This document shows positions 29,758 to 45,891 of a DNA stretch of 45,891 nt, piece by piece; within the stretch, counting starts at the first letter, position 1; each line of letters opens with the position of its first letter. The notes below the pieces were generated by a model. That model searched no databases, was not told the DNA's origin, and saw nothing but the letters and a program-made list of their open reading frames with translations. Source of the DNA: Clostridia bacterium (lineage in GTDB: Bacteria > Bacillota > Clostridia > RGIG6154); the NCBI GenBank assembly GCA_045589295.1, contig JAZNOU010000006.1, forward strand, positions 1 through 45,891. The letters are read 5' to 3'. The position numbers and the translations under genes were made by a program.

Positions 29758-32700
29758 TTATAATGTCTTTACATAGGTGTAAGGAATCATCTTGCCATTC
29801 GCATCCCAGACAAAGAGTTTAATTTTCTTTGTATTAGGCGCTGTGAAGTTAAAGACATATTCGCTTGTGAATCCGTTAGCCGGAACAGTTATGGTCTTGC
29901 TCTTAGTTGAAATAAGTCTGTTATCTTCACTGTAGCATGCAATATGAATTGTTGCATCTTTTGCACTGTCGGTTAAGTTATATGCATAAGTTGTAACATT
30001 AAAGTTATCACTTTCCTTACCATCTACCGAGTAAACAGTAACACCTACCTGATTGCGTTCTTGTCCTTCAATCAAAGTGGTAAACTTAAATGCGTCTGAA
30101 ATTTCAACTTCACCTGTTGCATACTTATGAGTTGCCGTAGTACTTACTCTCCAGTAGTAAACCTTGTCACTCTCTAAGCTTGCTTTTACTTTGTATGAAA
30201 GGTCATAGGTCGTATCACTTTCAACCATACTTTCTGGTGAAAAGCTCTTATCAGTTGCAACTTCAACAAAGTATTCCTGTGCGCCTTCTACTGATGCCCA
30301 CTTAAGTGATAAGTCTTTTGCAGAAATTGAAACTTCAACCGGACTGATTGCCTTTACTTTTGCATTCTCAGCATAATCTTCTTCTGACAAAAGGCCCATT
30401 TTTGAGTATGGAATTGGTTCAATTCCTAATGACTCATAAACGCTTGCATCTGCATATCCCTTGCTCGCAAATGGATTTTCAGTTGTAAAATACTTATTGT
30501 TTTCATCAACAGTTCTGATGTAACCGCTGAATATTGCGCTATACTTACCTGCATTTCTACCTGATGCGTGTTTTGCTATGTCAATTCTATTTTCGCCTGT
30601 GTTAATCATAACGTTATTTGCAACATAGTTATCACGAGCAGACGAAAGGTAAGCGTTTAAATTGATTTTCTGAGTTGTTGCAGATGTAGATGTAGAATAA
30701 CGATAGTATGTGTGAGTATGACTTCCTGTATAAGAGATAATGCTGGAGGTTTTTGCATTAGCAACAGTCTTCCCGTTATTTTCATACTCGGTAATTCTTC
30801 TATACATAAGCTCAGCCCATTTTTTAAGAAGCGGATAACGGTCAGCATAAGCACCTGTTATGGTTGTTCCATTTCCGCCATAACCTTCAGATGCTAAAAG
30901 TTTTTTTGTAATTGAACCATATTCAAGTGCACCAGTCTTCCATCTTGTTTCGCCGCTATTCTGCTGTTGCCAATATTGATTTGTAATTCTTATTGGTCCT
31001 TCATTTTCTCCCGCTGTATTTGTGTAGTTCAAGAGAACGTTGTTGTAAATGGTATTCTCACTTCCTGTATGAAGTTGAATCCAGCTTCCGTCAATGATAT
31101 TTCCGTAAATATAACATTCTGAAAGCATATCGTCAAAATATACAGCTCTTGGCTCTTTCGACGTGCTGTGGATGTAATTATATCTTACGTGATTGCCGCG
31201 GTTGAACATATCGTTACCATTAACATATATTGCACCTGAGTCAGTAGTAACTCTGGGTCCTGCAACAATTTCATTATATTCAACAACCGTTTCATTACCT
31301 GAAATACTCAGACAAGAGCCTACGTTGTTTGAAACAAAGTTATGGCTTATTATCTGCCCAATACCTGCAGCCGTAACGCCCTTTGTATTATAAAATACGC
31401 AGTTTTGTACAAACTGACGGTCAGGGATGAGCTGTTTCTTTTCCTCTCGGTCATCGCCTTCAAGGTAAACCCCGTAATCTTCTATATCTTTGAAAGTAGA
31501 ATTAATAACACCTGAGTATTTTCCCACAACATAAACGCCGCTGCCAACATTTTCAAACAAGCAATTCTGAACAACAACGCTGTCTGATTCGTTATAGCCT
31601 ACTATATTCACTGCTTTTCCTTTTGCTTTTGTAAAGTTAATGCCGTTAATTACAACATTTTTACATCTTGTAAAATCCCACATATAATTAGTATTAGAAA
31701 CTGCATATAGTATTTCAGCATCTTCTGTAAAGTCGGCTGTCGGATAAACATAAAGCTTGCCTGTATTTTTATCCACAAACCATTCGCCAGGGCTGTCAAG
31801 CTCTTCTAAAACATTGTAGTAATAGAAAGAAGGGGAATAAGTGTCAGTTTTAGTATATTTACAACCCCAACTTATACCTTCTTTTGTTCTGATGCTTCCT
31901 TTTGCTGGGTTGAATTTTGCAATATTAAGGTGATCCAATGTCCATTCATTATAAAATCTTCCATAAACCCAGATGTCACCTGTATTTACCCATGAGAATG
32001 GTCTTAAATCTTCAATACAGAACTCGGCACCTGTTGCCATTGCTGTTTCTTCAGCAGTTGGTGTTTTCCCTGAAGCAAGAAGCTCAGTATACCACTTTGA
32101 ATATGTACGAGCCGGACCACATTCAGAACCAACCGCTATGTCAATAGCACCTGAGTCAATAACCCCGTTACTAACTCCTTTGCTATTTTTATCCGCATCA
32201 GCGCCTGTATATTCTTTCATTTCTGTTGTTTCTGAGTTCGGCCATCTTGCAATGGTATATTTGCTCTCGCCTACAAATAAAGCAGGTTGAGAGCTTTTAG
32301 AAATCTCACCGAAATTTGTCATTCCATATTTTTCTTTTAAGTCAACAACCAGAATCTTATCAGCTGCCTCAGGTGCAAATCTTTGATATACATCCTGGTC
32401 AGTAACGTGTTCAAAATCAGCTACTTTAATAGTTTCACCGCCTGAAACTGTAACTTTTTCATTGTTATAATTTGAAACAATAAATGGTAATTCTTCCGTG
32501 CCTTCAACGTCTAGAATATACATTCCTTCACTCATAAGATATGTTCCTTCTCTTAAGTAAAGAATCATACCGCTTTGTGGCTTATGTTTTTGTAACGCAG
32601 CTTTTATTGTTTTAAATGGCTTATCAATTGTACCTGTAGCGGTATCATCATTACCATTATTAACATCAACAAAAACTTCCGTAAGCCCCTTAATTTTTGC

Positions 32701-33228
32701 AGGCTGTACAACAGGCATCTCTGATGGCAATTCATCTCTTCTTTCTACAAAAAGATCTTTTACTGCAGAAGCTGTTGGCGCGCCATAGCTTGTAGGCAAG
32801 CCTTTTAACGCCTCCAATCTGCCTGGCTCTGATAAAACATCCTTTCTGGTGTCAATTTCTCTTGTTAAATGTGCGTACCCTGTTGTGAAATAGAGGGTAT
32901 ATACACCTGGAGCACCTGTATGCTTAAATTCATACTCAAATGAACCGTCAGCCTTTGCATCAATTTCCTCATAGTATGAAAATACTTCATTACTATCTGA
33001 ATGCTGTGGAATTTCGTCGCGTGTTTTCCCTGGATTTAACATATAAAATGTTGCCCAGTTTCTTCCCATAGTTGTTGCCATTCTTCCCGACAGTTTGAGC
33101 ATTCCGGTATCAGCCTTATATTCTACAACCAAATGAATGCCCGACGATGTGTCTGCTGCAATACAGGGAAGAGAAAAACAACAAATAAGCATTAATACAC
33201 AAATAATAGTTGCAATAATTTTTTTCAT
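29758..33228 (-). CDS. Secreted right-handed beta-helix CAZyme-like protein (GH141-like motifs) with N-terminal Ig-like module, Fn3-like domain and C-terminal 'FVWD' module
   Basis: Signal peptide; FVDVNNGND...GTIDKPFKT, YTIARWPN, EELDSPGEWF, DSGAIY, VYFDD; Fn3-like 'LKWASVEGA...YYWRV'. Confidence 0.8.
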   Translation of the reverse strand: MKKIIATIICVLMLICCFSLPCIAADTSSGIHLVVEYKADTGMLKLSGRMATTMGRNWATFYMLNPGKTRDEIPQHSDSNEVFSYYEEIDAKADGSFEYEFKHTGAPGVYTLYFTTGYAHLTREIDTRKDVLSEPGRLEALKGLPTSYGAPTASAVKDLFVERRDELPSEMPVVQPAKIKGLTEVFVDVNNGNDDTATGTIDKPFKTIKAALQKHKPQSGMILYLREGTYLMSEGMYILDVEGTEELPFIVSNYNNEKVTVSGGETIKVADFEHVTDQDVYQRFAPEAADKILVVDLKEKYGMTNFGEISKSSQPALFVGESKYTIARWPNSETTEMKEYTGADADKNSKGVSNGVIDSGAIDIAVGSECGPARTYSKWYTELLASGKTPTAEETAMATGAEFCIEDLRPFSWVNTGDIWVYGRFYNEWTLDHLNIAKFNPAKGSIRTKEGISWGCKYTKTDTYSPSFYYYNVLEELDSPGEWFVDKNTGKLYVYPTADFTEDAEILYAVSNTNYMWDFTRCKNVVINGINFTKAKGKAVNIVGYNESDSVVVQNCLFENVGSGVYVVGKYSGVINSTFKDIEDYGVYLEGDDREEKKQLIPDRQFVQNCVFYNTKGVTAAGIGQIISHNFVSNNVGSCLSISGNETVVEYNEIVAGPRVTTDSGAIYVNGNDMFNRGNHVRYNYIHSTSKEPRAVYFDDMLSECYIYGNIIDGSWIQLHTGSENTIYNNVLLNYTNTAGENEGPIRITNQYWQQQNSGETRWKTGALEYGSITKKLLASEGYGGNGTTITGAYADRYPLLKKWAELMYRRITEYENNGKTVANAKTSSIISYTGSHTHTYYRYSTSTSATTQKINLNAYLSSARDNYVANNVMINTGENRIDIAKHASGRNAGKYSAIFSGYIRTVDENNKYFTTENPFASKGYADASVYESLGIEPIPYSKMGLLSEEDYAENAKVKAISPVEVSISAKDLSLKWASVEGAQEYFVEVATDKSFSPESMVESDTTYDLSYKVKASLESDKVYYWRVSTTATHKYATGEVEISDAFKFTTLIEGQERNQVGVTVYSVDGKESDNFNVTTYAYNLTDSAKDATIHIACYSEDNRLISTKSKTITVPANGFTSEYVFNFTAPNTKKIKLFVWDANGKMIPYTYVKTL

Positions 33229-33301
33229 ATATTTTCTCGCTTTCTTTTTTAATGTCGATAAATTTTGGCCAAAATTTCTTTCCCTATTTTAAGGTCCAAA
33301 T

Positions 33302-33323
33302 GGGAACGGGCATGCCCGTTCCC
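33302..33323. other. Perfect 22-bp GC-rich palindrome between the two beta-helix genes
   Basis: GGGAACGGGCATGCCCGTTCCC; the T tract follows it on the + (antisense) strand only. Confidence 0.8.
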
Positions 33324-33338
33324 TTTTTTGGTCAATTT

Positions 33339-36300
33339 TTATTTTGCACTGCTAATTGAAACTTTTCCAAGTGTGTTATGGCAGTAGAATAAGAAATATC
33401 CTTCTTCATAAATTGGGTTGTCAGTATCTAAATACTCTAAAACAACGTTTCCATTAACTTTAAGTGTACTTAATACACCGCCGTCAACATTTACGGAACC
33501 TACTTCAAATTCATAGGTTTCGCCCGACTTAATCTGTCCGTTGTTCGGAACCATAGCAACAATTTCTCCGTTGCCTTTTTCAAGATACTTCTGGAATTCA
33601 ATCAAATCTTCTTTAATAACAAAGAAGTATCCTTTTGCCTTTGTAGGTATAACTTTAGTATCCAACTGTCTTGTAGCGATTGCCTGCCAATCCCCAACAT
33701 TGTCATACTTAAAGCCAAATTTCATCAACTGTTTTGGTGCCAAAGAATTTTTAAATGCAAATACTGTGCTTTCCTTCTCGTTAGGAACTACTTCAATAAC
33801 TGTGTTATCACTTGCAAGACTTATCGCAGCGAGTGCACTTGTGCTTTCCCATAGTGAAAGGTCAAGCTCTTTTATTGCATAAGTGAATTCTAAAGTATCA
33901 TTTTTCTTAATATCTGCAACAACAGTATTTAATGCATCTGCAGCTGCTTTTACATCTTCTTTAGCTTCAACTGCTGCAAGTGCTGATTTTGCAGTTGCGA
34001 TTGCATCTTGCAGTTTTGCTTTTGTACCTGTTTTGTATGTAACAGTTTCAGCCGCCAAATCGCTTTCTGTGATTGTTTCTTCAAAAGCCTGAGCTTGCTC
34101 AATTGCTCTTTCGAGCGCAGCGGTGCTTACAAAATCTCCGTCCAAAGCAGCCATATCGCTAACGCTTGAATATTCTGTTGTCACATTCTTTGCCTGGTGC
34201 ATAAAGCCGTAGTATGCAGGAGCGTAGCAGTCAATAGTAGCATCTACGTCAAGGTAATCAAAGATTGTTTCGCCGTCAATTTTTACGGTAACATGGACAC
34301 CTTCGCTTGTAGGTCTTACTTCTGATACCAAATCAAACCATTCACCAGGTTTTATAATCTCATTGTTATTTACAACGTCAGCCAAAACAGGACCGGAAGC
34401 AGGTTGCGGATATCTTTGAAGCTCAATGAGGTCAGACTTAAAGATTAAACAGTAGCCACTAACTGATGTAATACCGCCCGGAATAGCGATAGAACCGCTA
34501 ATATCAACGCCTGTATAGTCATCAAGTCTTTCGTGTCTTACGCTCATCGCAAGAGTTGCTCCTGCGGACAATCCGCGGACAGTACTTGCAACAACGCCGG
34601 AAGCCGTTCCGCCTGAAAGCTTTAATGTATCGCCAAGATATTCATCAACAATACCTGCTGTATTTTTCTTGAATTTTTCAGCAACTACTTCATGTGAACC
34701 CTTACCAAAGTTTACAGTATAAGGAATTGCGTTTTCAGCAAGTTTAATATAGAAGTCTTTCTGCCACTGAACACAGTATTTATCAAGGTCATCCTGTAAC
34801 TTAAATTCGTCTCTCTTAACTTTTCCTTCTTCAATAAAGTCTCTGAGAATCTTGATAGTACCTTCTTTGTAAAGAGGCATATCAGACGGATAGTTTTCTG
34901 CTTCAGGTGAGCCTTCTTCAACAACGTTACCTGCATCAAGGAATTTACTCATTGATTTAAACGCTGCATCCATTTCCACACTATCAAGCTCAATCATATC
35001 AACAGCTTCTTCAAATGTGTATGTTACAAAAGTTGCTGTTTCCATAACAGAAGGAGTTTTGCTTACCTTTTCTGTCCATGAATTTGTTGAAACAGTCCAA
35101 TAGTACTGCTTACCAAACTCAAGATCTGGAAGTGCAAGTTCTTCTGCTTGGGTTTCTGTCTCTAAGATAATATCCTTAAATTCAGGATCTGTTGCTAATT
35201 TAACATTGTATGATGATTTACCAAAAGCCTCGTTCCATATGAGAGCAACACCAGTAGGCAGTATCTTAACCTCATCGCTGTTCATAGGAGCAGCAGGTTT
35301 AATCTCTGGGAGTTCCAAAGGCTTATCTAAAAGTGCAGGGTCAAAAATCGGTCCCATTTGAACATTTTTCTTAAACGGTTCAATTCCCGTGGTAAGCTTA
35401 CTTAAAGTTTCATCATCAAAATCTAAAACGCCATTGTCCCAATCGGTAAATTCAAGCACTGATGGGTCTTCGAATAAATAGTTATTTTCAACAACATAAT
35501 CAATTTCACGGCTTATAATTTCTACGTCTACCGGAATATTCACCGCAATATTGTTTTTGTAAACATTGTTTTTAGGAGATGAAAGGTAAAGCCCCTCTTC
35601 ATCGTCAGTACTAACATAGTTAGGATTAAAATAATGATCGTATGTATGCTGAAGTATTCTTCTCTGCCAATCATACTGATACGGGAATCTGCTGGTCCAA
35701 CTTAAAGTATAATAATCACCATAACGTTTTGTGTATCTTGATGACGTCTGAGGTATAACAACGCTACCCCATTCTGCTGAACCATGACCGTATCTTGTTG
35801 AGTTACTTATAGCAGAGTTTATATCAGGTAACTTACATATCAGATTATTATAAATCATATTGTCTGAACCTGAATGGAGGAATATTCTTGCTTCGTTTAA
35901 TACGTTACCATAAACATACATACCACCAGAAAGGTCATCAAGATAAATTCCTATAGGTGTGTGTCTGGGTGTAATAGTTGATCTGTTAAAGAAATTATAT
36001 CTTACAATGTTTCCTGCATTTCTTCCTGATCCATTATTATAGAAAAGTCCGGCATCAAGACCAACATCAGGTCCTGCAACAAATTCATTATACTCAACGA
36101 TTTTATCGCCAGAGCTTGCAGTTGTTGAAATACCCATGGTGTCAAAACCTGTTATAAGACAGTGCGAAACAATGTCTCTTGAACCACTAGTAATAGTAAT
36201 TCTCTTAGAATAACAGTTTTGAATAAAGTTTCCTGCAATCCTGTTATTTAGTTCAGGTGTCGGGCCATTCATACTGCTTTCGCCAAACAAAATTGAACAA

Positions 36301-37760
36301 GTAACACCATTTTCATAAACTGTTGTGTCCTGCTCTATGCAATAGTTACTTGTATTTTTAATTGTAGTATGCTGAACAAGATTGCGGTTGGCGCTATTTT
36401 CCATTCGGACGCCGTTATAACCCATATCCAATGTAATTCCGTTTATAACAGAATATTTTGTGCCTGACATAGTAATAAGATTGTCTGTTGCTGTAACTAC
36501 CTGAATTAAGGTATTGTCTTTTATTTCAACTGAAGGGTAAACATAAAGCATACCTGTCTTATTATCTAAGAACCATTCACCAGGATTATCAAGCTCTTCT
36601 AAGATATTATAGTAATAGAAGTTTTTCTCTTTAATATACTGAGCACCATAGTTACTATAGTCATAAGACTTAATAGTCATTTTGTCTTCATTCCAGCTCT
36701 GAACCCTGAAGTGGTAAGGACACCATTCCATATAGAAATATCCGTAAAACCAGATATTATCTGTGTTTTCCCATGAAAATGGTCTTGGGTTAACAACCTG
36801 GAACTCAATACCTGTACCTGTTTTTCCTGTATAGTTACCAATACTTGAGTCATCGATAATATCACCAATATTAACAACACCATGAGAACCATCCAATCCT
36901 TCATACTGTGCCATATTAGTCATACCAACGTTAGGCCATCTTGCAATTGTGTAAAGTATGCCGTCAATATAAAGTGCAGGTCTTGAAGTTCTGGTCATTG
37001 TACCAAAGTCTGTATAACCAAGCTTACCTAAATCAACTGAATAGATATATGGCTTTACAGAATCTTTGACTTTTCTGTTGAATGTAGCGTCATTTGCTTT
37101 ACTAAGCTGTGATCCCGAAACTGTCATAGCTCCTGTAAAGGTAACTTTTTCATCTTTATAGTTTGAGTAAAATACCAAATCTTTTTCGCTTGAACCGCCT
37201 GATTTTTGAGTGAGCGATACAGCTTGTAAAATTGAGTATACACCCTCTCTGAAGTAAACAGTTACGCCACCTTTTTTAGACTTAAGCTTATTTACTGCGT
37301 TTACTGCTCTTTGAGGTGTTTTAAAAGGTTCGTCTATTGTTCCAGGGTTGTGGTCATTACCTGTAGGCGATACATAAAATTTCACTTTTGATGCATCAAT
37401 TTCTGCCTTTGTATACGGTGCAAAAACAGGTACTTCATCAGGAAGAGTTTCTCTAACCTGTTTAAAACGTCCCTCTGTATCATTAGTAAGTGTGTTATAC
37501 AAAAAGTCATCTGTAAGGCCTAATGTATAATCTCTTGTAAGTTTTGTTCCTGTTGACTCTACAACATAGTTTTCCCAGTCAATATTTATGCCGTCAAGTA
37601 CACCTGCAGTGTTTCCCGAAGCATCGCCCGAAGCAGATAAAATTACTGCTTCAGGCTGTGCTGCTGTTTCTTGTTCTGCCGCTAATACTGCAAAATTTGC
37701 AGAAGTAAGCATCATTAACACTACAAGTATCGAGGCGACTGTTTTATGAAATTTATTCAT
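33339..37760 (-). CDS. Secreted right-handed beta-helix CAZyme-like protein (GH141-like motifs) with Fn3-like domain and two [helical + lectin-like] C-terminal repeats
   Basis: Signal peptide; FYVSPTGNDHNPGTIDEPFKT, YTIARWPN, EELDNPGEWF, DAGLFY, GIYLDD; AAGGAGG RBS. Confidence 0.8.
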   Translation of the reverse strand: MNKFHKTVASILVVLMMLTSANFAVLAAEQETAAQPEAVILSASGDASGNTAGVLDGINIDWENYVVESTGTKLTRDYTLGLTDDFLYNTLTNDTEGRFKQVRETLPDEVPVFAPYTKAEIDASKVKFYVSPTGNDHNPGTIDEPFKTPQRAVNAVNKLKSKKGGVTVYFREGVYSILQAVSLTQKSGGSSEKDLVFYSNYKDEKVTFTGAMTVSGSQLSKANDATFNRKVKDSVKPYIYSVDLGKLGYTDFGTMTRTSRPALYIDGILYTIARWPNVGMTNMAQYEGLDGSHGVVNIGDIIDDSSIGNYTGKTGTGIEFQVVNPRPFSWENTDNIWFYGYFYMEWCPYHFRVQSWNEDKMTIKSYDYSNYGAQYIKEKNFYYYNILEELDNPGEWFLDNKTGMLYVYPSVEIKDNTLIQVVTATDNLITMSGTKYSVINGITLDMGYNGVRMENSANRNLVQHTTIKNTSNYCIEQDTTVYENGVTCSILFGESSMNGPTPELNNRIAGNFIQNCYSKRITITSGSRDIVSHCLITGFDTMGISTTASSGDKIVEYNEFVAGPDVGLDAGLFYNNGSGRNAGNIVRYNFFNRSTITPRHTPIGIYLDDLSGGMYVYGNVLNEARIFLHSGSDNMIYNNLICKLPDINSAISNSTRYGHGSAEWGSVVIPQTSSRYTKRYGDYYTLSWTSRFPYQYDWQRRILQHTYDHYFNPNYVSTDDEEGLYLSSPKNNVYKNNIAVNIPVDVEIISREIDYVVENNYLFEDPSVLEFTDWDNGVLDFDDETLSKLTTGIEPFKKNVQMGPIFDPALLDKPLELPEIKPAAPMNSDEVKILPTGVALIWNEAFGKSSYNVKLATDPEFKDIILETETQAEELALPDLEFGKQYYWTVSTNSWTEKVSKTPSVMETATFVTYTFEEAVDMIELDSVEMDAAFKSMSKFLDAGNVVEEGSPEAENYPSDMPLYKEGTIKILRDFIEEGKVKRDEFKLQDDLDKYCVQWQKDFYIKLAENAIPYTVNFGKGSHEVVAEKFKKNTAGIVDEYLGDTLKLSGGTASGVVASTVRGLSAGATLAMSVRHERLDDYTGVDISGSIAIPGGITSVSGYCLIFKSDLIELQRYPQPASGPVLADVVNNNEIIKPGEWFDLVSEVRPTSEGVHVTVKIDGETIFDYLDVDATIDCYAPAYYGFMHQAKNVTTEYSSVSDMAALDGDFVSTAALERAIEQAQAFEETITESDLAAETVTYKTGTKAKLQDAIATAKSALAAVEAKEDVKAAADALNTVVADIKKNDTLEFTYAIKELDLSLWESTSALAAISLASDNTVIEVVPNEKESTVFAFKNSLAPKQLMKFGFKYDNVGDWQAIATRQLDTKVIPTKAKGYFFVIKEDLIEFQKYLEKGNGEIVAMVPNNGQIKSGETYEFEVGSVNVDGGVLSTLKVNGNVVLEYLDTDNPIYEEGYFLFYCHNTLGKVSISSAK

Positions 37761-37777
37761 TTAGTCAACCTCCTTTA

Positions 37778-40546
37778 TTATTTGTAGTAAACCATCATGA
37801 TAGGTGCTCCCTGATTTGCAATAAGTACACCCTTTTCAATAACACCATTGCCATCATTATATGTTTTAATATCGTTTACTCTGATAGGTTCAAAAATATT
37901 TGCCTTTGTATTAACTTCAATAATTAATGTAGCCGCTATATTATAAACTCTCTTTGTTGGATTTGGACTGAACTCTTCGAGCTTTAAGCTTGTGTTACTT
38001 GATGATACCTGTCTGAACAACCAATAATCAAACACAAGTTCTGCTGCATTTCTTTCCACTCTGTTGATGTAGAATGGAAGTACACAGTTAACGTCTGTTA
38101 AATACATGTAGTCTCTTTGGATCTTTGAAATATCAAAGTCATGCATAATTCCGTATTCACATTCTTCAAAGTAGTACTGTGAACCCGGATTAACTACCTT
38201 ACCCTGACTATAGTCGTAGCAAACAATAATACAATCGTCACGGATCATATTACCATCTAATGTGTAAGCAACAACATCACCAACGCCAGCTACAATCGGA
38301 TTAGTTGTGCACTGTCCAAGACCACACTGACAAACAAGTGTAGTGTCGCTTTCTGTCATGTATTCAAGATACTCATCCCCATCAGTGATAGTAACCTTTT
38401 TAACCGGATTACCTTCATCGTTGATGGTTTCTCTTACTTTTGTAATAACACCGTAAGTAGGAAGGTCCTGACTGTGCGGTTTTGTATAGTTGATATTAAC
38501 GCTGTATACGATATTTTCTGCATACAATCCGCCGGTTTTTGTCGCATAAGCGGTTACCTTATATGAACCTCTTGAACTGATTTTTGAGTTTGAATAATCA
38601 GTAACGTAAGCATCTTCAATGCTCTGTCCTCTTGGGATAACAAATGCTTTTGCTCTTCCGTCTAATACAAATCTGTCGCTAAATGAATTAGCCTTTGAAT
38701 TGTAATAAATTTCTTCGTCATTTGCACCTCTCATAATGTGAAGTGTGTCATCAGACTCTGTTAAATAGTTTGGATTACCTGTTGCGATATCATATGGTGT
38801 GTCAATATAATTGATTTTACCGTCAGCATTAACTCTGTATCTGATAAGATTTGTTTTAAAGCCTACAAGATAGTTTGCAAGGGTCTCTTTACTTTTATAA
38901 AGCCTTCCGTCAACAACTACTCTGTCAGCTGTAGTAAAGTCTGAAATAGAGCTTCCATCTGTTAAAAGTCTGATTGTAAGAACATCATCCATTGCATTTT
39001 TGTAATGAAGATTTATAAGATAACCAACTTTAACTGAATCTTCTTCTTCATTAACACTGTAAACAAGCTCATTGTCAAATGTGAAATAAAATACCATATT
39101 TCTGCCAATTGCAATGTCACTTGGATTTGCAGTAACATAATCTGAATATGTCTTTGTTGCAATGTATTCTGTTTCTCCTACATAATAGCTGTTGCCGTCC
39201 ATTGTAGAGAGAATACCTGTTAATTTTTCATTAGAGTACTTAATTCTTGCACGCTTGCCGTCAGCTGTCTTTGCAACTGATAAAACAACGCCGCTGTTCA
39301 TTGAAGCAAGATCAAATAAAGCACCCTGCTTGTTAGTGATTATTAAGTCATTTTTTGCTTTTGACAAGTCAATATCAACGTCTGTGTAATTAGGATTACC
39401 ATAAATTATGCCGGCTTCAGCATCAACATTTTCAACTACAACAATTGTGTAGTCTGTAACCATAACTAAATCATAATAACCGTCGCCATCTGTATCAACA
39501 ATCTTAACATTACCATTTTCAGGCTTTAGCATCTGATCCATAGTTTTTGTAAATGATGCTTCTTTTGTTTCTGTTGAATAAGCGTGACCGTTGTAGATAA
39601 GTCTGTAATTTGCATTAAGAAATGCTTCTTCCGTATCGTTCTGAGCCTCATCTACATAATATTCATACTTAAGAGCTGAATATGTTGCAATGTCTTTATA
39701 ATCAAGTTCAATAATATCTGTTTTGTTTTCGTTAACATAAGCAAAGATTAAAATGTTTTTGTCTGCATCTTCGTCATACTTATAAAAACCTTCAACAGTG
39801 TAGCCCAAAAGGTCTTCCATTCCTGTCTGGTTTTCAAAAACTGACTGGCCGATTTTAATCTGGCCTTTATTTATTGATGAATCACCGATAAGCCCTGTAA
39901 CACCATCATCAATAACTGTTCCTTCTATCATATAAATGCCAAGTCTTTTTGACATGAACATTTCTTTTTCAGGATTGTTTGTTGTAGCATTGCCATCATA
40001 CATATTGGAGTTTGAAATATCTGCACGTAATGTATTGTAAACAAGCTTTAAAGCAGCTTTAGCTGTAACGTTTGTATTTGCTTCAAGCCCAACACCGCTT
40101 AAAAGACCTTTTGCAGCTGCAGCGGGAATGTATCCGCCGTAGTACTGTGCAAAATACTGGTCACCCATTAAGTTAACCAAAATTTTGCAAGCAGCTTCTG
40201 CTGTAAGTAATGCGTCAGGTTCAAAGTTGCCGTTTCCGTCACCAACAACAAAATACATCTGATAAAGGAGTGTTGTAACGTCAAAAATCGGGCTGTCTAC
40301 CGGAACATCTTTAAAAATCTGTGTTGTTGATAAACCTTTGTAGTTTTCAATAGGAATAAGTTTTGCTACCAATTTAGCAAATTCGCCTCTGGTAATCAAG
40401 GCTGTTTCATCAGCAAATGTGCCCTCTGCTACAATGCCTGCTTTATCCAAAAAAGCAGGGATTTTATCTGAAGACATTGCTGCACTTGCAGCAACTGATG
40501 TGAAAAGCATGGTAAATGCCAATATGAAACTTAAAAGCTTTCTCAT
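37778..40546 (-). CDS. S-layer-like protein with N-terminal SLH domains
   Basis: Signal peptide; ITRGEFAKLV, FKDVP...GDGNGNFEPDALLT; DTDGDGYYD Ca-binding-like motif. Confidence 0.82.
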   Translation of the reverse strand: MRKLLSFILAFTMLFTSVAASAAMSSDKIPAFLDKAGIVAEGTFADETALITRGEFAKLVAKLIPIENYKGLSTTQIFKDVPVDSPIFDVTTLLYQMYFVVGDGNGNFEPDALLTAEAACKILVNLMGDQYFAQYYGGYIPAAAAKGLLSGVGLEANTNVTAKAALKLVYNTLRADISNSNMYDGNATTNNPEKEMFMSKRLGIYMIEGTVIDDGVTGLIGDSSINKGQIKIGQSVFENQTGMEDLLGYTVEGFYKYDEDADKNILIFAYVNENKTDIIELDYKDIATYSALKYEYYVDEAQNDTEEAFLNANYRLIYNGHAYSTETKEASFTKTMDQMLKPENGNVKIVDTDGDGYYDLVMVTDYTIVVVENVDAEAGIIYGNPNYTDVDIDLSKAKNDLIITNKQGALFDLASMNSGVVLSVAKTADGKRARIKYSNEKLTGILSTMDGNSYYVGETEYIATKTYSDYVTANPSDIAIGRNMVFYFTFDNELVYSVNEEEDSVKVGYLINLHYKNAMDDVLTIRLLTDGSSISDFTTADRVVVDGRLYKSKETLANYLVGFKTNLIRYRVNADGKINYIDTPYDIATGNPNYLTESDDTLHIMRGANDEEIYYNSKANSFSDRFVLDGRAKAFVIPRGQSIEDAYVTDYSNSKISSRGSYKVTAYATKTGGLYAENIVYSVNINYTKPHSQDLPTYGVITKVRETINDEGNPVKKVTITDGDEYLEYMTESDTTLVCQCGLGQCTTNPIVAGVGDVVAYTLDGNMIRDDCIIVCYDYSQGKVVNPGSQYYFEECEYGIMHDFDISKIQRDYMYLTDVNCVLPFYINRVERNAAELVFDYWLFRQVSSSNTSLKLEEFSPNPTKRVYNIAATLIIEVNTKANIFEPIRVNDIKTYNDGNGVIEKGVLIANQGAPIMMVYYK

Positions 40547-40547
40547 A

Positions 40548-42089
40548 TTATGCTACCTCCTTTGTAATTGCATATACAAGCAATGCTGCCTGTGCACGTG
40601 TTGCTGTAGCCTTAGGTGCAAATGTGTTGTCACCCATGCCATTAATAATTCCTTTTGCCGCCAAAGCACTAACTGCTTCTTTAGCATAATCGCTGATTTC
40701 GCTATAATCTGCAAAATCTGTCTTGTTGGCATCAAATGTAACGCCATTTGCTTTCATAACGTTATAAATCATAACAGCCATATCTTCGCGTGTGATACTT
40801 CTGCCGTAACCGAATTTGCCTTCGCCTACGCCATTAATGAAACCTGCTGCTTTTGCTGATGCAACATAAGTAGCTGACCAGTCGCCTGCAGGGATATCAG
40901 TAAATTCATTCACTGCTAAAGAATTGTATTTGCCTGATGCAAGAATAATCATTTTTGCAAACTGCTCTCTTGTAACAAGGCCGTTTGGTTCAAAATAACC
41001 CTGGCTTGTACCTGCTACGATACCCTTTAATGAAAGAGCTTCGATAGCTTCCTTAGCCCATGAAACTGAACCTAAATCATAAAATGCAACTGTTGTCGCT
41101 GTGTTTGCGGAATTATCTTCCATTTCGCCTGACCATTCTCTGTCATTTGGAGCAGGTGCACCGCCTCCTGCACCGCCTGCACCGCCTGCACCGCCGAGGC
41201 CATTGTCTGTAGGTGCATTTGCAACAGCTGTATCAAATGCTACTTTGATTTCATCTGCGTTAGCAAAATCCTGATGTAAAGTAACTACTTTATTTACAAA
41301 CTGATCCTGAACGTATTGTTTGCCTGCGTCACTAAGAGCATCATACGCTGTAAAGCTTATGCCTTTCATACTTGCCGCATTGTTTCTCATTAATGTAATA
41401 AAGGTTGTTGCATAAGTTGTGTTGTTGAATTCTTTAACAAATGCTGCTTCAGTTTCAACCTTATCAACCAAAGCATAGAAGCTTTCCAAAATCTGAGCGT
41501 TTGTACCTGTTACATCAATATCCAATCTGTTAGTGTAAACTCTGTACTCAAACAACGCTTCTGATTGAGAAAAACGTGTTAAGTCAACACCGATCTGACC
41601 ATGTTCTTTAATTTTGTCCATAATCACATCTTGAGCAATATTACCTGTTTGAATTTGTTTTACCAGTGTTGCTGCACTTGCGGTACCTTCGATTGTAAAG
41701 TTTACACCCGCTGAGGTATAACCATCATATAATGCGTAAAAAGTTAAACTAGTTGGATTTTCAGCAACAAATGTAAATGTTGCTGAAAATTTACCTACTG
41801 TATCTGCAGATGCAGTTGTTGTTGCAATAGCTACAACCGCACCTGGTACTGAATAGTTTGATATAGGAGCATCAAGACCATTAAGTGCTAAAATTGTTAC
41901 ATATCTGTTTTCTAAAACAGAACCCATGTCGTTAACAAGGTTGCCTGATACTCTGATTTTTCCCTGTACAGCATCCAAAATTTCAATGTTAGTTGAATTA
42001 AACGGAATGCTTACTGCTGCTGATACGGGAAGTGCACATACTGACACTATTAAACAAAGTGTCAGCAATAATGTTAGTGCTTTTTTCAT
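40548..42089 (-). CDS. Cell-wall anchor protein: N-terminal Ig-like module, helical region, Gly/Ala linker, three C-terminal SLH domains
   Basis: Signal peptide; FYDLGSVSWAKEAI...VTREQFAKMI, FTDI...ITREDMAVMI, FADYSEISDYA...ATRAQAA. Confidence 0.9.
   Translation of the reverse strand: MKKALTLLLTLCLIVSVCALPVSAAVSIPFNSTNIEILDAVQGKIRVSGNLVNDMGSVLENRYVTILALNGLDAPISNYSVPGAVVAIATTTASADTVGKFSATFTFVAENPTSLTFYALYDGYTSAGVNFTIEGTASAATLVKQIQTGNIAQDVIMDKIKEHGQIGVDLTRFSQSEALFEYRVYTNRLDIDVTGTNAQILESFYALVDKVETEAAFVKEFNNTTYATTFITLMRNNAASMKGISFTAYDALSDAGKQYVQDQFVNKVVTLHQDFANADEIKVAFDTAVANAPTDNGLGGAGGAGGAGGGAPAPNDREWSGEMEDNSANTATTVAFYDLGSVSWAKEAIEALSLKGIVAGTSQGYFEPNGLVTREQFAKMIILASGKYNSLAVNEFTDIPAGDWSATYVASAKAAGFINGVGEGKFGYGRSITREDMAVMIYNVMKANGVTFDANKTDFADYSEISDYAKEAVSALAAKGIINGMGDNTFAPKATATRAQAALLVYAITKEVA
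41157..41195. repeat. 9-bp coding tandem repeat (TGCACCGCC x4) encoding a GGA linker
   Basis: Copies at 41157, 41169, 41178 and 41187; protein GGAGGAGGAGGGA before the SLH domains. Confidence 0.85.
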
Positions 42090-42106
42090 GCTAAATTACC
42101 CCCTAA

Positions 42107-45100
42107 TTATCTGCTTGTTATTTCATCAGGAAGCTGCATAAGTCTTCCCATAGAACCGTCTGTCTTAGCTTCCCAGATATACATTCTTACAATCTTAGCC
42201 CCTGTTCTGCCTGCAAATGTATTAAAGTCAAAGTTTGCAGCTGTGCTTCCGCTTGGGATTGTAACATACTGAATACCGATAAGCTCTTCTTTTTCATTAA
42301 ATGCTGCAACTGCTGCAATTACGTCTTTGTCGTGTGCACCTGAAAGATTCATTGTGTAAGTAAATCTTGTTGCAGTTTCCATTGCTGTGCTAAAGCAGTT
42401 AAAGCTTGCTTTACTTGCTACTGCATCAATATAAACATTTAATGCTTTTGCAGTGGTAAACGGATATGAAAGACCTCCAAATGCTTCGCCATCTTCGGAC
42501 TTAAGTGTTTGTGGAATTCCATTTACTTTTGTTGTTGCCTTAACTTCTAAGATATAGTCGGTCTGATATTTAAGTCCGTTCTTAGGAACAATTGTAATAA
42601 CATTTCCGTTTGTAATTGTAATATTAGCATCAACTATATTGCCTTCGCTGTCTTTTACAGTAACGAGGTCTTCAAGAGTATCATCTTTAAGTGAATCTTC
42701 AATAAGTTTTACAGATTCAGCGTTAAGTTTCTTTGTTAATGTAAGGGTAATATCATCGTCTTCCTTAACATTGTCTTTCGGAACGTCAACGTGTGTTCTG
42801 AATTTTGTTTCTTTTGTGATTTTCCAATCATCATAGTAAACTACAACAGGTGAACCTGAGTCTGCACCAACAATTTTTGACATCATACCGTCAATAGTAC
42901 TATAGTTTGAAGCAAATGCAATTTCGCTTACAAGTTTTCCGTCAAGATAAACATGATGTGAAGGTGTTAACTGTCCGGTTGCAGCAAACTCATTTGCAGA
43001 GAACACAAACTCAATAGTATGCCATTCATCTGTTGTAAAGAGTGCATCTACGCTACCTGCTACTCCTGTTGAAACAGTGGCTGCAGTGTTATACATATGG
43101 AATTTAGGTGATCCGTCTGTGTGTCTTGCAAAGTTAGAGTCGTTGATTTCCACGCCTGTTCTGCTTGTAGCACCAAGGATGTAAGACGCGTTACGAAGCT
43201 GCTGTGAGCTTAACGGAACGTGAGGTACCGAACTGCTAGGAACATATATGCGTGAACTCATACGAATAACTGTGTATTGATCTTCTGTAATTGTTTCCTG
43301 CTTATCTAATGCTCTTTTTACTATATGATAGTTAGGAGCTGTAGAATTTGATGTTGAAGACGCAAGAACTGAGCCGTCTTTTCCATAGTAACCAGTATTG
43401 TTCATCAATACCATGTTGTCACCATCCGGGTCTGCAGGGTCCTTTACAATCTTAACTTCGGCATCTCTGTATTCTGCACCGATTTTTTCTAATGTAAAGA
43501 TTGAAGGTTTTTTGTCCGGACTTGTATACCAGTTTACATAAGGTGTAAATTCAATTCCTTTTTCTGCTTTTTCAATGCTGTTTTCAAAGTTTTCTTCAAG
43601 CAATACAACTGTGTCAAAGTTTGCGTCTCCAGGAAGAGCACTTCCTGAGCCTGCACCTTCACCAGCCAAATCGCCTACTACTTTGCTTGCTGTATTCACA
43701 GTAATCATAACAGCAGCAAGTTGTTCGCCCTTGATGCTAACCAACGAGCCATCTTTTGATGTAATCTTATAAGAACCACCTGTGATATCAAGGTCTTTGA
43801 GCTGAAGTGTAACAACTTTTTTATCCTCTGAAACTGTAACTGTTAAGCCACTTACTCTTAAGTTTTCCTGATTTTCAACAACAAATGCATCATTGATAGC
43901 ATTCGCGCTTTCATCATTCAAAGGATATGTTAATTCAATATTAATTGCTTTTTCTGTTTTTGGCTCATAGCCTGTAATACTGCTTTCATATGTTGCTTTG
44001 AATGGTAAGATTTTAAAGCTGTACTCAAATTCAAGCTTTCTTCCTCTTCTGTCAATAAGCTTATCTGTAGCTTTAATTGTGTGCATACCTTTGCCAAGTC
44101 TAAGACCTGAAAGCTGGAGTGTGATTGTGTCATCATCTGTTTTTGCAGCGTTATTTGCATTATATGTAGCCTGAATGCCTTCAATCTTAGTGCCGTTTTC
44201 GTCCACAACTTCAAAACCTGTAGCAAATTCTTCTGCTGCAAGTGTAGCCGGTGAAGACAAGCCAAGTAAAATAGTCTGGTCTTTGCCTTCTACATATTCA
44301 GTAATAACGCCTGTACCAGGTTCAGAATATATAACCATAAAGTCAACAGTGTTGAAAGAAATACTTACATTTGCGAAAAGTCCATCAGCATTTGCTAATT
44401 TACCATCAACTGATTCGATCATATGTTTGCCATCGCCAAGCTGAAGTCCTGAAAGCTGAAGTTTTACAATATCCTTTGTTTCGCCGAATTCTGCAGCAAG
44501 ACCCGGGATATTCTTTCCGTCCTTATCTGTTACGATAAATGCGTTTGAAAGGTCGGTATTATCAGCGAGAACTTCTTCAAATTTAATTGTAATAACCTGA
44601 TCTTTTCCTAAATCGTAACTAGGAACTGCTGCAGGTGTAATGCTTTCAACCAAAAGTTTTCTTGCTGTTGTAAACTCTACTTCTCTGTTTGTTGTAGGAG
44701 TGTAAGGAATGTAACAGTCAACAAAAGTCGCACTTGTACCGTCTGCTTTTGCCATTTTTGCACCTGTACTTCCTGATGCAGGTGTGTATGTGCATTCAGC
44801 GGCACCAATCATATACTTGCCGTTTGTTGCTGTATAGTTTTCATTAATTGGATACTCGTACCACTCATATTCCTGGGTAATAGATGTTCCGTAAATGTCT
44901 TTTATTGTATCATTTAATACAACTTTATAATTGCTTTCACTAACAAGTGACTTAGCTAAAACAACTCTTAATTTTTTGCCGCCTTCTTCGAGTGTAGCAC
45001 TCTTAACAGCGTTTACAACCTTATTACCTTCTGCATCAAGAACATTAACGCTTTCATTAATTGTTGCAGGGTCAACTTCACCTGTAAATGTATATACTAC

Positions 45101-45891
45101 AGAATCTGTTGAAGGTTCAAAAGCAGTTTCGCTTCCGACAAGCTCAACATCGCTAACGCTGAAGCTGTCTATGAGATAAGCTTTAAAGTTATCCACATAG
45201 ATTTCCATGCCATTTACACTACCCCAAACACCATAAATTGTGTCTGCAAAGTTAAATTCCTGACCCTGATAACCTGCAGGGAGCAAGCCTGTATATGTCA
45301 AACCACTTCTTTTATGTCCGCTTAATACGCTGTTTGCAGTATTTTTCAAAACTGCACCATTGTTGTAAACAGTGATTGTATCTACTTCGCCTGTCTGGTC
45401 AAGGATAATTTTAATTTTTCCGGCATCATTCTTATAGTTGTGTGCAGATGCAGGTGTACCATACCACATATATATAGGACCGTAAGATGAGTTTGCCCAT
45501 GTGCCTTCTTCAACACGGAAGTTGCCGGCTGTTTGTAATGTAGGTTTCCATGCACCAGAGTTTGGATAATCAAAAATCTTTGCTTGATTTCTTGAAGGTG
45601 CAAAGAATGATGACTGATGCGCACCAGATGAAATTATTTTAACATCCGCTTCGTAAACAAGCTTTTTGCCTGCATACTCTCCGCTTGTTAAAGAAATGCC
45701 CTGAGTGCCATTAAAGTTTCTTCTGAATGTCATATAGTCGGTATCGTAGTCGGTTGCTCTGTCATTATAAAGTCTTAAGGCACCGCCTGAGAAGTTACCG
45801 CCAAGATTCATATTTGAAACATCTACAACAGAAATACTATCGTTTGTATTTGTAGTTGAATGTCTTAAATAGGACTGGATATCCCAATTGC
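42107..45891 (-). CDS. Very large surface protein, 5' end outside the window: lectin-like domains, about five Ig-like (Big_5-like) repeats and a C-terminal 'YIWE' module
   Basis: Frame is open from the window end through ATG 45811; repeats of the type I...F...L...F.V.D..G...V.LQL..L...G...I...L....G; ConA-like endings IYVDNFKAY and VYYDDWKI. Confidence 0.8.
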   Translation of the reverse strand, partial: NWDIQSYLRHSTTNTNDSISVVDVSNMNLGGNFSGGALRLYNDRATDYDTDYMTFRRNFNGTQGISLTSGEYAGKKLVYEADVKIISSGAHQSSFFAPSRNQAKIFDYPNSGAWKPTLQTAGNFRVEEGTWANSSYGPIYMWYGTPASAHNYKNDAGKIKIILDQTGEVDTITVYNNGAVLKNTANSVLSGHKRSGLTYTGLLPAGYQGQEFNFADTIYGVWGSVNGMEIYVDNFKAYLIDSFSVSDVELVGSETAFEPSTDSVVYTFTGEVDPATINESVNVLDAEGNKVVNAVKSATLEEGGKKLRVVLAKSLVSESNYKVVLNDTIKDIYGTSITQEYEWYEYPINENYTATNGKYMIGAAECTYTPASGSTGAKMAKADGTSATFVDCYIPYTPTTNREVEFTTARKLLVESITPAAVPSYDLGKDQVITIKFEEVLADNTDLSNAFIVTDKDGKNIPGLAAEFGETKDIVKLQLSGLQLGDGKHMIESVDGKLANADGLFANVSISFNTVDFMVIYSEPGTGVITEYVEGKDQTILLGLSSPATLAAEEFATGFEVVDENGTKIEGIQATYNANNAAKTDDDTITLQLSGLRLGKGMHTIKATDKLIDRRGRKLEFEYSFKILPFKATYESSITGYEPKTEKAINIELTYPLNDESANAINDAFVVENQENLRVSGLTVTVSEDKKVVTLQLKDLDITGGSYKITSKDGSLVSIKGEQLAAVMITVNTASKVVGDLAGEGAGSGSALPGDANFDTVVLLEENFENSIEKAEKGIEFTPYVNWYTSPDKKPSIFTLEKIGAEYRDAEVKIVKDPADPDGDNMVLMNNTGYYGKDGSVLASSTSNSTAPNYHIVKRALDKQETITEDQYTVIRMSSRIYVPSSSVPHVPLSSQQLRNASYILGATSRTGVEINDSNFARHTDGSPKFHMYNTAATVSTGVAGSVDALFTTDEWHTIEFVFSANEFAATGQLTPSHHVYLDGKLVSEIAFASNYSTIDGMMSKIVGADSGSPVVVYYDDWKITKETKFRTHVDVPKDNVKEDDDITLTLTKKLNAESVKLIEDSLKDDTLEDLVTVKDSEGNIVDANITITNGNVITIVPKNGLKYQTDYILEVKATTKVNGIPQTLKSEDGEAFGGLSYPFTTAKALNVYIDAVASKASFNCFSTAMETATRFTYTMNLSGAHDKDVIAAVAAFNEKEELIGIQYVTIPSGSTAANFDFNTFAGRTGAKIVRMYIWEAKTDGSMGRLMQLPDEITSR

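Follow-up and report, generated by a model that had tools for sequence, protein, structure and literature searches.

S-layer homology (SLH) domains bind the cell wall, and dockerins bind cohesins. Scaffoldins that anchor through SLH domains and monovalent adaptor scaffoldins are classified in the available text of PMC11557425, and the available text of PMC13487519 describes for Cellulosilyticum lentocellum a minimal system of a single cohesin and a single dockerin, with the dockerin protein in a cellulase complex. Here we analysed a 45,891-nt stretch of a Clostridia bacterium genome (GCA_045589295.1; 1.54 Mb, 97% complete), that is, the entire 45.9-kb contig JAZNOU010000006.1, hereafter the window, which encodes two unnamed modules termed N and C. 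We consider it probable, though by no means certain, that C serves as a tag in the manner of a dockerin, with N as its cohesin-like receptor, and that the two form a separate docking system able to plug into a cohesin–dockerin pair. The docking idea is well supported by genomic logic, namely fusions, the exclusion of C and SLH from one protein unless N lies between them, anchored N, adaptors, and co-occurrence.

Five consecutive minus-strand genes of the window encode a giant Big_5 protein ending in C, an N-helix-SLH3 anchor, a 922-aa S-layer-like protein, and two GH141-like beta-helix proteins of 1473 and 1156 amino acids (aa). The giant, a putative cargo, is a secreted Big_5/lectin-like repeat protein (open reading frame, ORF, 42107..45891; Big_5 E 1e-13) with its module C at 42110..42409, located by sequence search and modelled as a beta-sandwich. 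Its gene lacks the 5′ part, cut by the contig end; orthologues of full length, at 1955 and 2081 aa, carry a signal peptide and end in C, with neither N nor SLH, in keeping with the C-only reading that the initial annotation took from the visible part. The anchor gene (40548..42089) starts 17 bases past the giant's stop, and its product comprises a signal peptide, module N as putative receptor (41688..42008; by profile comparison), a helical region common to N-SLH anchors and fused C-N-helix-SLH proteins (41199..41666), a Gly-rich linker and three SLH domains (40584..41087; Pfam SLH E 1e-34). The 1156-aa protein (29758..33228) carries N first (32839..33144; by profile comparison) and C last (29761..30060; by sequence search). 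With a GH141_M score of 27.6 bits (cut-off 27) and a match to BT_1002 at E 2e-6, it has both the insertion domain and the beta-helix of GH141 and is, by sequence, a predicted enzyme. The motifs that the initial annotation quoted for the two C and two N copies were found in the ORFs at these positions, and no SLH, dockerin or LPXTG was present in the C-bearing window proteins.

The two C copies of the window are homologous, as blastp aligned them with 28% identity over 67 aa (pairwise E 1e-6), and jackhmmer started from the beta-helix C recovered the giant's C at E 1.6e-16 among the genome's 3725 ORFs. The two N copies gave no significant pairwise alignment (E 0.1); their orthologue profiles aligned with an hhalign probability of 88.6 and E 2.6e-6 (C versus N as control, E 0.45), and an iterated search seeded with the anchor N alone reached the enzyme N. 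Both kinships, first proposed from the motifs, were thereby borne out. A profile of four tandem N copies did not recover the window's N copies in the genome, and no direct alignment was obtained between the anchor-N and tandem-N profiles (E 0.069), whose link passes via the enzyme N and deeper profiles. In Pfam, none of the 13 C members and 30 N members tested came near a cut-off, the best single-member matches being Mannosidase_ig for C (E 0.001) and CarboxypepD_reg for N (E 3e-4). Dockerin_1 matched 0 of the 13 C members, and Cohesin (PF00963, about 140 aa, compared with about 90 aa for N) matched 0 of the 30 N members. NCBIfam holds no name for either module, and the ESM Atlas clusters nearest to C are unnamed. 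The modules match no catalogued carbohydrate-binding, Big or Ig family of Pfam above a curated cut-off, in agreement with their first description as unnamed.

Module C is widespread: in a sample of 301 genomes from the class, a 13-row profile matched 80, and among proteins clustered at 50% identity it matched at least 1414 clusters. Full scoring of five chosen genomes gave 86, 45, 41, 35 and 27 C copies, and the source genome has 10 C and 8 N copies. Stand-alone C-only ORFs of 101–104 aa without a signal peptide were observed in genome G287 (L075:9765-10070 and L070), which we read as remnants or frameshifted tails. Further, an 1849-aa CUB/LRR/Big_2 protein with a terminal C (G000:C12:34990-40539) is flanked by integrase-like and resolvase-like genes, identified by eye, which suggests that C-tagged cargo can be mobile.

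Evidence for docking comes from domain order. Only 7 of 259 C proteins in a pooled set have SLH, and in 7 of these 7 N lies between C and SLH (five at the cut-off and two, in an 8-protein search, at E 2e-4 and 8e-4); the set is enriched in C matches and anchor loci and keeps duplicates, which lessens the weight of these counts for docking. Five proteins (P0088, P0120, P0131, L020 and L022) are single chains of the form cargo-C-N-helix-SLH3, with the C-N-helix unit doubled in two, and the window's giant and anchor separately match the two halves of these fusions. Among 101 N proteins, C occurs in cis in 61, SLH in 26 and both in 5, while the other 9 comprise four N-dockerins, four truncated entries and one with a weak C. 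No more than 2–3 N modules were found per protein, and no multi-N scaffoldin with CBM3 was seen. The modules had been expected to be always terminal, and this did not hold: in the source genome (G000) and the analysed parts of G100 and G287, C was terminal in 54 of 73 proteins, while 12 had it close to the start and 7 at a central position; N started 24 of 31 N proteins. N-C tandems are common, both the N-C and the C-N order occur, and four secreted SGNH/DUF4886 proteins of the source genome start with N-C nearly without a linker.

Gene order repeats the same association. A C-ending gene lies directly before an N-SLH gene at four loci in the genus and in families f12, f18 and f37; the whole five-gene order of the window is conserved in G005, and the giant–anchor pair recurs in G006 and twice in G007. 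Genome G100 repeats a cassette of several C-ending cargo genes, an N-helix-SLH3 anchor and an S-layer-like gene. When scanned for the pattern of the window's anchor, genome contigs yielded 0 loci and metagenomes 1.

A second route to the wall was found outside the window. The single dockerin match of the source genome is on a 213-aa N-dockerin protein (C21:8183-8824, L107), and its single cohesin match is on a cohesin-SLH protein (C7:78905-79960, L106). The label 'non-cellulosomal' of the initial annotation stands for N and C themselves, but the genome does contain a cohesin–dockerin pair, which would serve as one wall anchor. Genome G287, assembled as one contig, has 35 C copies; no N was found in it at E ≤ 0.001, nor any N-SLH anchor among about 30 of its SLH genes. 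At first this appeared to refute the docking of C on N; the N-dockerin route explains it, since a 297-aa protein of G287 consists of a diverged N and a dockerin and is encoded directly before a cohesin-cohesin-SLH3 and a cohesin-SLH3 gene. A profile built from homologues of this adaptor aligned with N at E 1.6e-4 (probability 51), its best outside matches being N modules. The profile of the adaptor's N-part matched 58 of 300 genomes. At its 30 best loci, a Pfam dockerin was present in 23 (E ≤ 0.002; 17 over the cut-off) and a cohesin-like neighbour in 16, of which 9 were recognised by Pfam and 6 had served as seeds of the local model. Similar genes for N-dockerins, as a rule a single one in a genome, adjoin cohesin genes in many families, and the ESM Atlas clusters nearest to N-dockerin are hypothetical dockerin proteins. 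In P0024 and P0112, two or three C modules come after a cohesin; such proteins may be reverse adaptors linking both systems. We also considered N as the X module of X-dockerin, and sequence comparison speaks against it: the profile matches to Protein Data Bank (PDB) sequences included no solved X-dockerin, and L138 has N followed by a separate X-like module and a dockerin-like tail (by eye).

These adaptors bear on the reading of N and C as ordinary Ig-like spacers or stabilisers, shuffled among the secreted proteins of related clostridia and without docking. A generic Ig/Fn3 fold, scattered weak Pfam matches to Big, MG2 and CarboxypepD_reg, and the co-occurrence that kinship alone can yield would all suit inert spacers. 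The N-dockerin proteins, however, contain no further domain that N could space or stabilise, and neither L138, with N ahead of its own X-like module, nor the strong rules of position and partner, nor the conserved outward face described below would be expected. Inert spacers are thus very improbable.

Across genomes, the two modules travel together. C is present in 58 of the 67 genomes with N, and in 42 of the 42 that have at least two N copies; N is present in 16 of 19 families with C and, when the adaptor profile is included, in some form in 68 of 80 C genomes. Re-examination of 5 of the 12 remaining C-only genomes found N in G192, G212 and G218, and a deeper C profile found C in 5 of 13 N-only genomes. 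In 20 genomes negative for both modules, it found C only in G003, which belongs to the source genome's own family, and in 0 of the 19 controls outside that family.

Several results weigh against the docking of C on N. In genome G197 (97% complete), three queries detected neither N nor a dockerin, although 18 proteins bear C (L143-L171), and no N was found in G301 (2 C) or G003 (3 C); the re-examination covered 5 of the 12 C-only genomes. Related genomes are not independent, so the co-occurrence counts support a link between N and C but are no proof. In G100, anchors are directly preceded by a C gene in 6 of 11 cases, compared with 27 of 101 other genes in a baseline from regions chosen around C matches; the expectation that a C-ending gene precedes an N-SLH gene was thus upheld at the genus loci and in the three families, and only in part in G100. 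C copies within one genome are only 14–28% identical, while dockerins of one type are much more alike. N is faintly like generic adhesin Ig repeats (6xi3, E 1.7e-6). Weak N matches were also seen in L126, a protein without C, SLH or dockerin, and in a secreted 323-aa protein (G000:C12:175358-176329; E 0.004) that likewise lacks all three. The latter has an unknown second domain and SLH genes nearby; the match would, if real, break the partner rule.

The main rival to docking holds that C itself binds a wall polymer, an S-layer-like protein or a substrate glycan, N being a separate Ig-like display or adhesion domain of a shared toolkit. The 18 C copies of G197 with no N found and the low identity of C copies inside one genome would fit it, as would the exposed-looking Tyr/Phe/Trp patch on C and its resemblance in fold to glycosidase Ig domains and the RsgI4 sensor domain. 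Binding to an S-layer-like protein in particular would agree with the presence of that family in G287 and in the cassette genomes, and with a source-genome protein that has C ahead of an S-layer-like body piece. Such binding leaves unexplained, however, the position of N between C and SLH in 7 of 7 proteins, the existence of small proteins made of N and dockerin only, and the N-SLH genes that come after C genes in several families; we therefore regard it as unlikely, though it deserves more weight than the other alternatives. G197 is the best place to seek another partner of C.

Both modules are families of about 90–100 aa with complete Ig-like beta-sandwich folds as predicted: C models as all-beta, and an N-C tandem from the source genome was modelled at a predicted local distance difference test score (pLDDT) of 90 with seven strands in each module, the last strand of C being short. 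According to these models, C and N are of the seven-strand, two-sheet Ig/Fn3-like sandwich class. The best fold matches of C were GH2 glycosidase Ig domains (Z 9.8) and the RsgI4 sensor domain (Z 9.1), with root-mean-square deviations (rmsd) of 2.2–2.8 over 84–88 aligned residues, 86–88 of them for the GH2 domains; a search with the giant's C alone gave only Z ≤ 7. N weakly matched FlgD (Z 7.4, rmsd 2.2), and no cohesin was among the matches listed for the tandem model, in which N was folded only together with C and C took most of the matches. The Ig-like fold is too common to indicate the function of C or N. Since both modules model as complete seven-strand sandwiches, the beta-strand complementation that the initial annotation had envisaged is not indicated, while the tethering of cargo through N that it proposed is favoured by the five kinds of context evidence named above.

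In each module, one sheet face is conserved and hydrophobic and the other variable and polar, the conserved face of C including Ala-x-Tyr, Lys-x-Phe-x-Trp and Met-x-Pro positions. Judging from strand alternation, the conserved face would point outward. Its conservation in C is equal in proteins with (65) and without (198) N in cis, a comparison that is partly circular, since the profile selects for the patch, and that counts for less in favour of docking on this account. From gene and domain context we infer an N:C contact, which would be formed by the outward C-C′-F-G sheet faces and might follow a specificity code. Complex prediction for the anchor N and the giant's C (30- and 44-row alignments) gave 0.03, 0.43 and 0.01 against a mark of 0.32, with controls not folded; it covered this one N/C pair and counts neither for nor against binding. 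Covariation between N and C in 40 tandem pairs, which are too few, gave no signal (maximum z 3.8, shuffles 3.9–5.1).

The tandems raise the question of whether N and C pair only within one protein or a fixed gene pair, as a split unit, with N+C enzymes closing on themselves and most lone C modules being relics or stabilising caps. C in cis in 61 of 101 N proteins and the presence of both orders are in keeping with this, and each module's nearest neighbours are its own orthologues, so that pairs may be private. Yet lone C retains the patch as well as cis-paired C and reaches 35–86 copies per genome, and self-closed N-C esterases would be left anchorless. N abuts C nearly linker-free, and the tandem model, at pLDDT 90, has a predicted template modelling score (pTM) of 0.62, which we read, as a weak point, as no fixed orientation in cis. 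Private pairing is accordingly improbable to a degree similar to that of inert spacers, and these two explanations fit the data worst.

Returning to docking as the preferred reading, C would be a portable tag, carried by secreted enzymes and adhesin-like proteins without a wall anchor of their own, and N its receptor, held to the wall directly as N-helix-SLH3 in the case of the window or, alternatively, through a small N-dockerin adaptor docked on a cohesin-SLH protein. By binding, with its last domain, the anchor from the next gene, the giant would re-form the C-N-helix-SLH3 unit that is a single chain in other clostridia, and scattered C proteins would reach the wall by this anchor or by way of N-dockerin and cohesin-SLH. 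As proteins with both modules lack any further anchor, they should dock by C, with N left free; the 1156-aa GH141-like enzyme and the N-C-esterases might then be adaptors that dock via C and present a new N. Open chains depend on N and C being self-compatible. That they are, and that both-module proteins (N-enzyme-C, N-C-esterase or enzyme-N-C) polymerise head to tail from a wall-bound N or N-dockerin with C-only giants as caps, seems a rather unlikely extension of the docking proposal.

The remaining genes of the window lie between the anchor and the 1156-aa enzyme on the same strand. The S-layer-like protein of 922 aa (37778..40546) has a degenerate N-terminal SLH, and a member of its family stands behind the anchor in most cassettes. 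This family, with N-terminal SLH, has several paralogues per genome, usually encoded directly after the N-SLH anchor; one G100 protein of 1438 aa fuses it to N-helix-SLH. The source-genome protein mentioned above, of 490 aa (G000:C5:64897-66369), has C first and then a stretch like the body of the S-layer family (E 2e-7), as if C had replaced SLH. The GH141-like beta-helix protein of 1473 aa (33339..37760) has no N, C or SLH. Its C-terminal 540 aa define a family with at least 10 members in G100, usually encoded next to a cassette's S-layer-like gene; these proteins lack N, C and SLH and may be attached by another route. A perfect GC-rich inverted repeat at 33302-33323, just past the 1473-aa gene, is a possible terminator or mRNA-stabilising hairpin ahead of the 1156-aa gene.

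Should N bind C, annotation would be overlooking a docking pair through which a large, mostly uncultured group of clostridia displays its glycan-degrading and adhesive proteins. This would explain secreted enzymes without a visible anchor and lone cohesin–dockerin pairs in genomes without a cellulosome, and would offer an all-beta pair, orthogonal to cohesin–dockerin, for designer enzyme complexes. If chains form, several uncultured clostridial families would possess a surface degradosome that extends itself and needs no scaffoldin. The literature searched, which excluded subscription papers and supplements, showed no description of either module or of the adaptor.

Among described systems, the cellulosome as classified in the available text of PMC11557425 shares with this one the many terminally tagged secreted enzymes, the few SLH receptors, and adaptors of receptor plus dockerin. 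N stands at cohesin positions (N-SLH and N-dockerin) and C at dockerin positions, the receptor being held by SLH or a dockerin adaptor and the tagged enzymes being anchorless. Whereas dockerins are helical and bind calcium, C forms an all-beta sandwich about 90 aa long; the Pfam models for cohesin and dockerin match neither N nor C, tag and receptor are often on the same chain, and the cargo consists of GH141-like, SGNH-esterase-like and lectin/Ig proteins. As in C. lentocellum, judged by the available text of PMC13487519, there is one cohesin and one dockerin per genome and the purpose of the lone pair is in question, while the single dockerin here carries only module N. Donor-strand fibres (chaperone-usher and type V pili) are built on an incomplete sandwich that a strand of the next subunit completes; each module here models with seven strands, which speaks against a missing strand, though the last of C is short. 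In Clostridioides difficile SlpA, the LID/HID pair derives from one precursor cut by a protease and relies on CWB2, and the displayed part is bound non-covalently to the wall-anchored part via a dedicated domain pair. The N/C pair likewise also exists as a single chain; here, however, each half has a gene and a signal peptide of its own and is found again on dozens of proteins. The C-terminal domain of type IX secretion in Bacteroidota, an export signal removed at the outer membrane, is similarly an Ig-like terminal module of about 80–100 aa on dozens of unrelated secreted cargo proteins; C, by comparison, occurs in monoderm clostridia on cargo with ordinary signal peptides, and also at internal positions. 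The N/C system thus works like cohesin–dockerin without being a member of it, and its arrangement points to an undescribed means of hanging enzymes on the cell surface.

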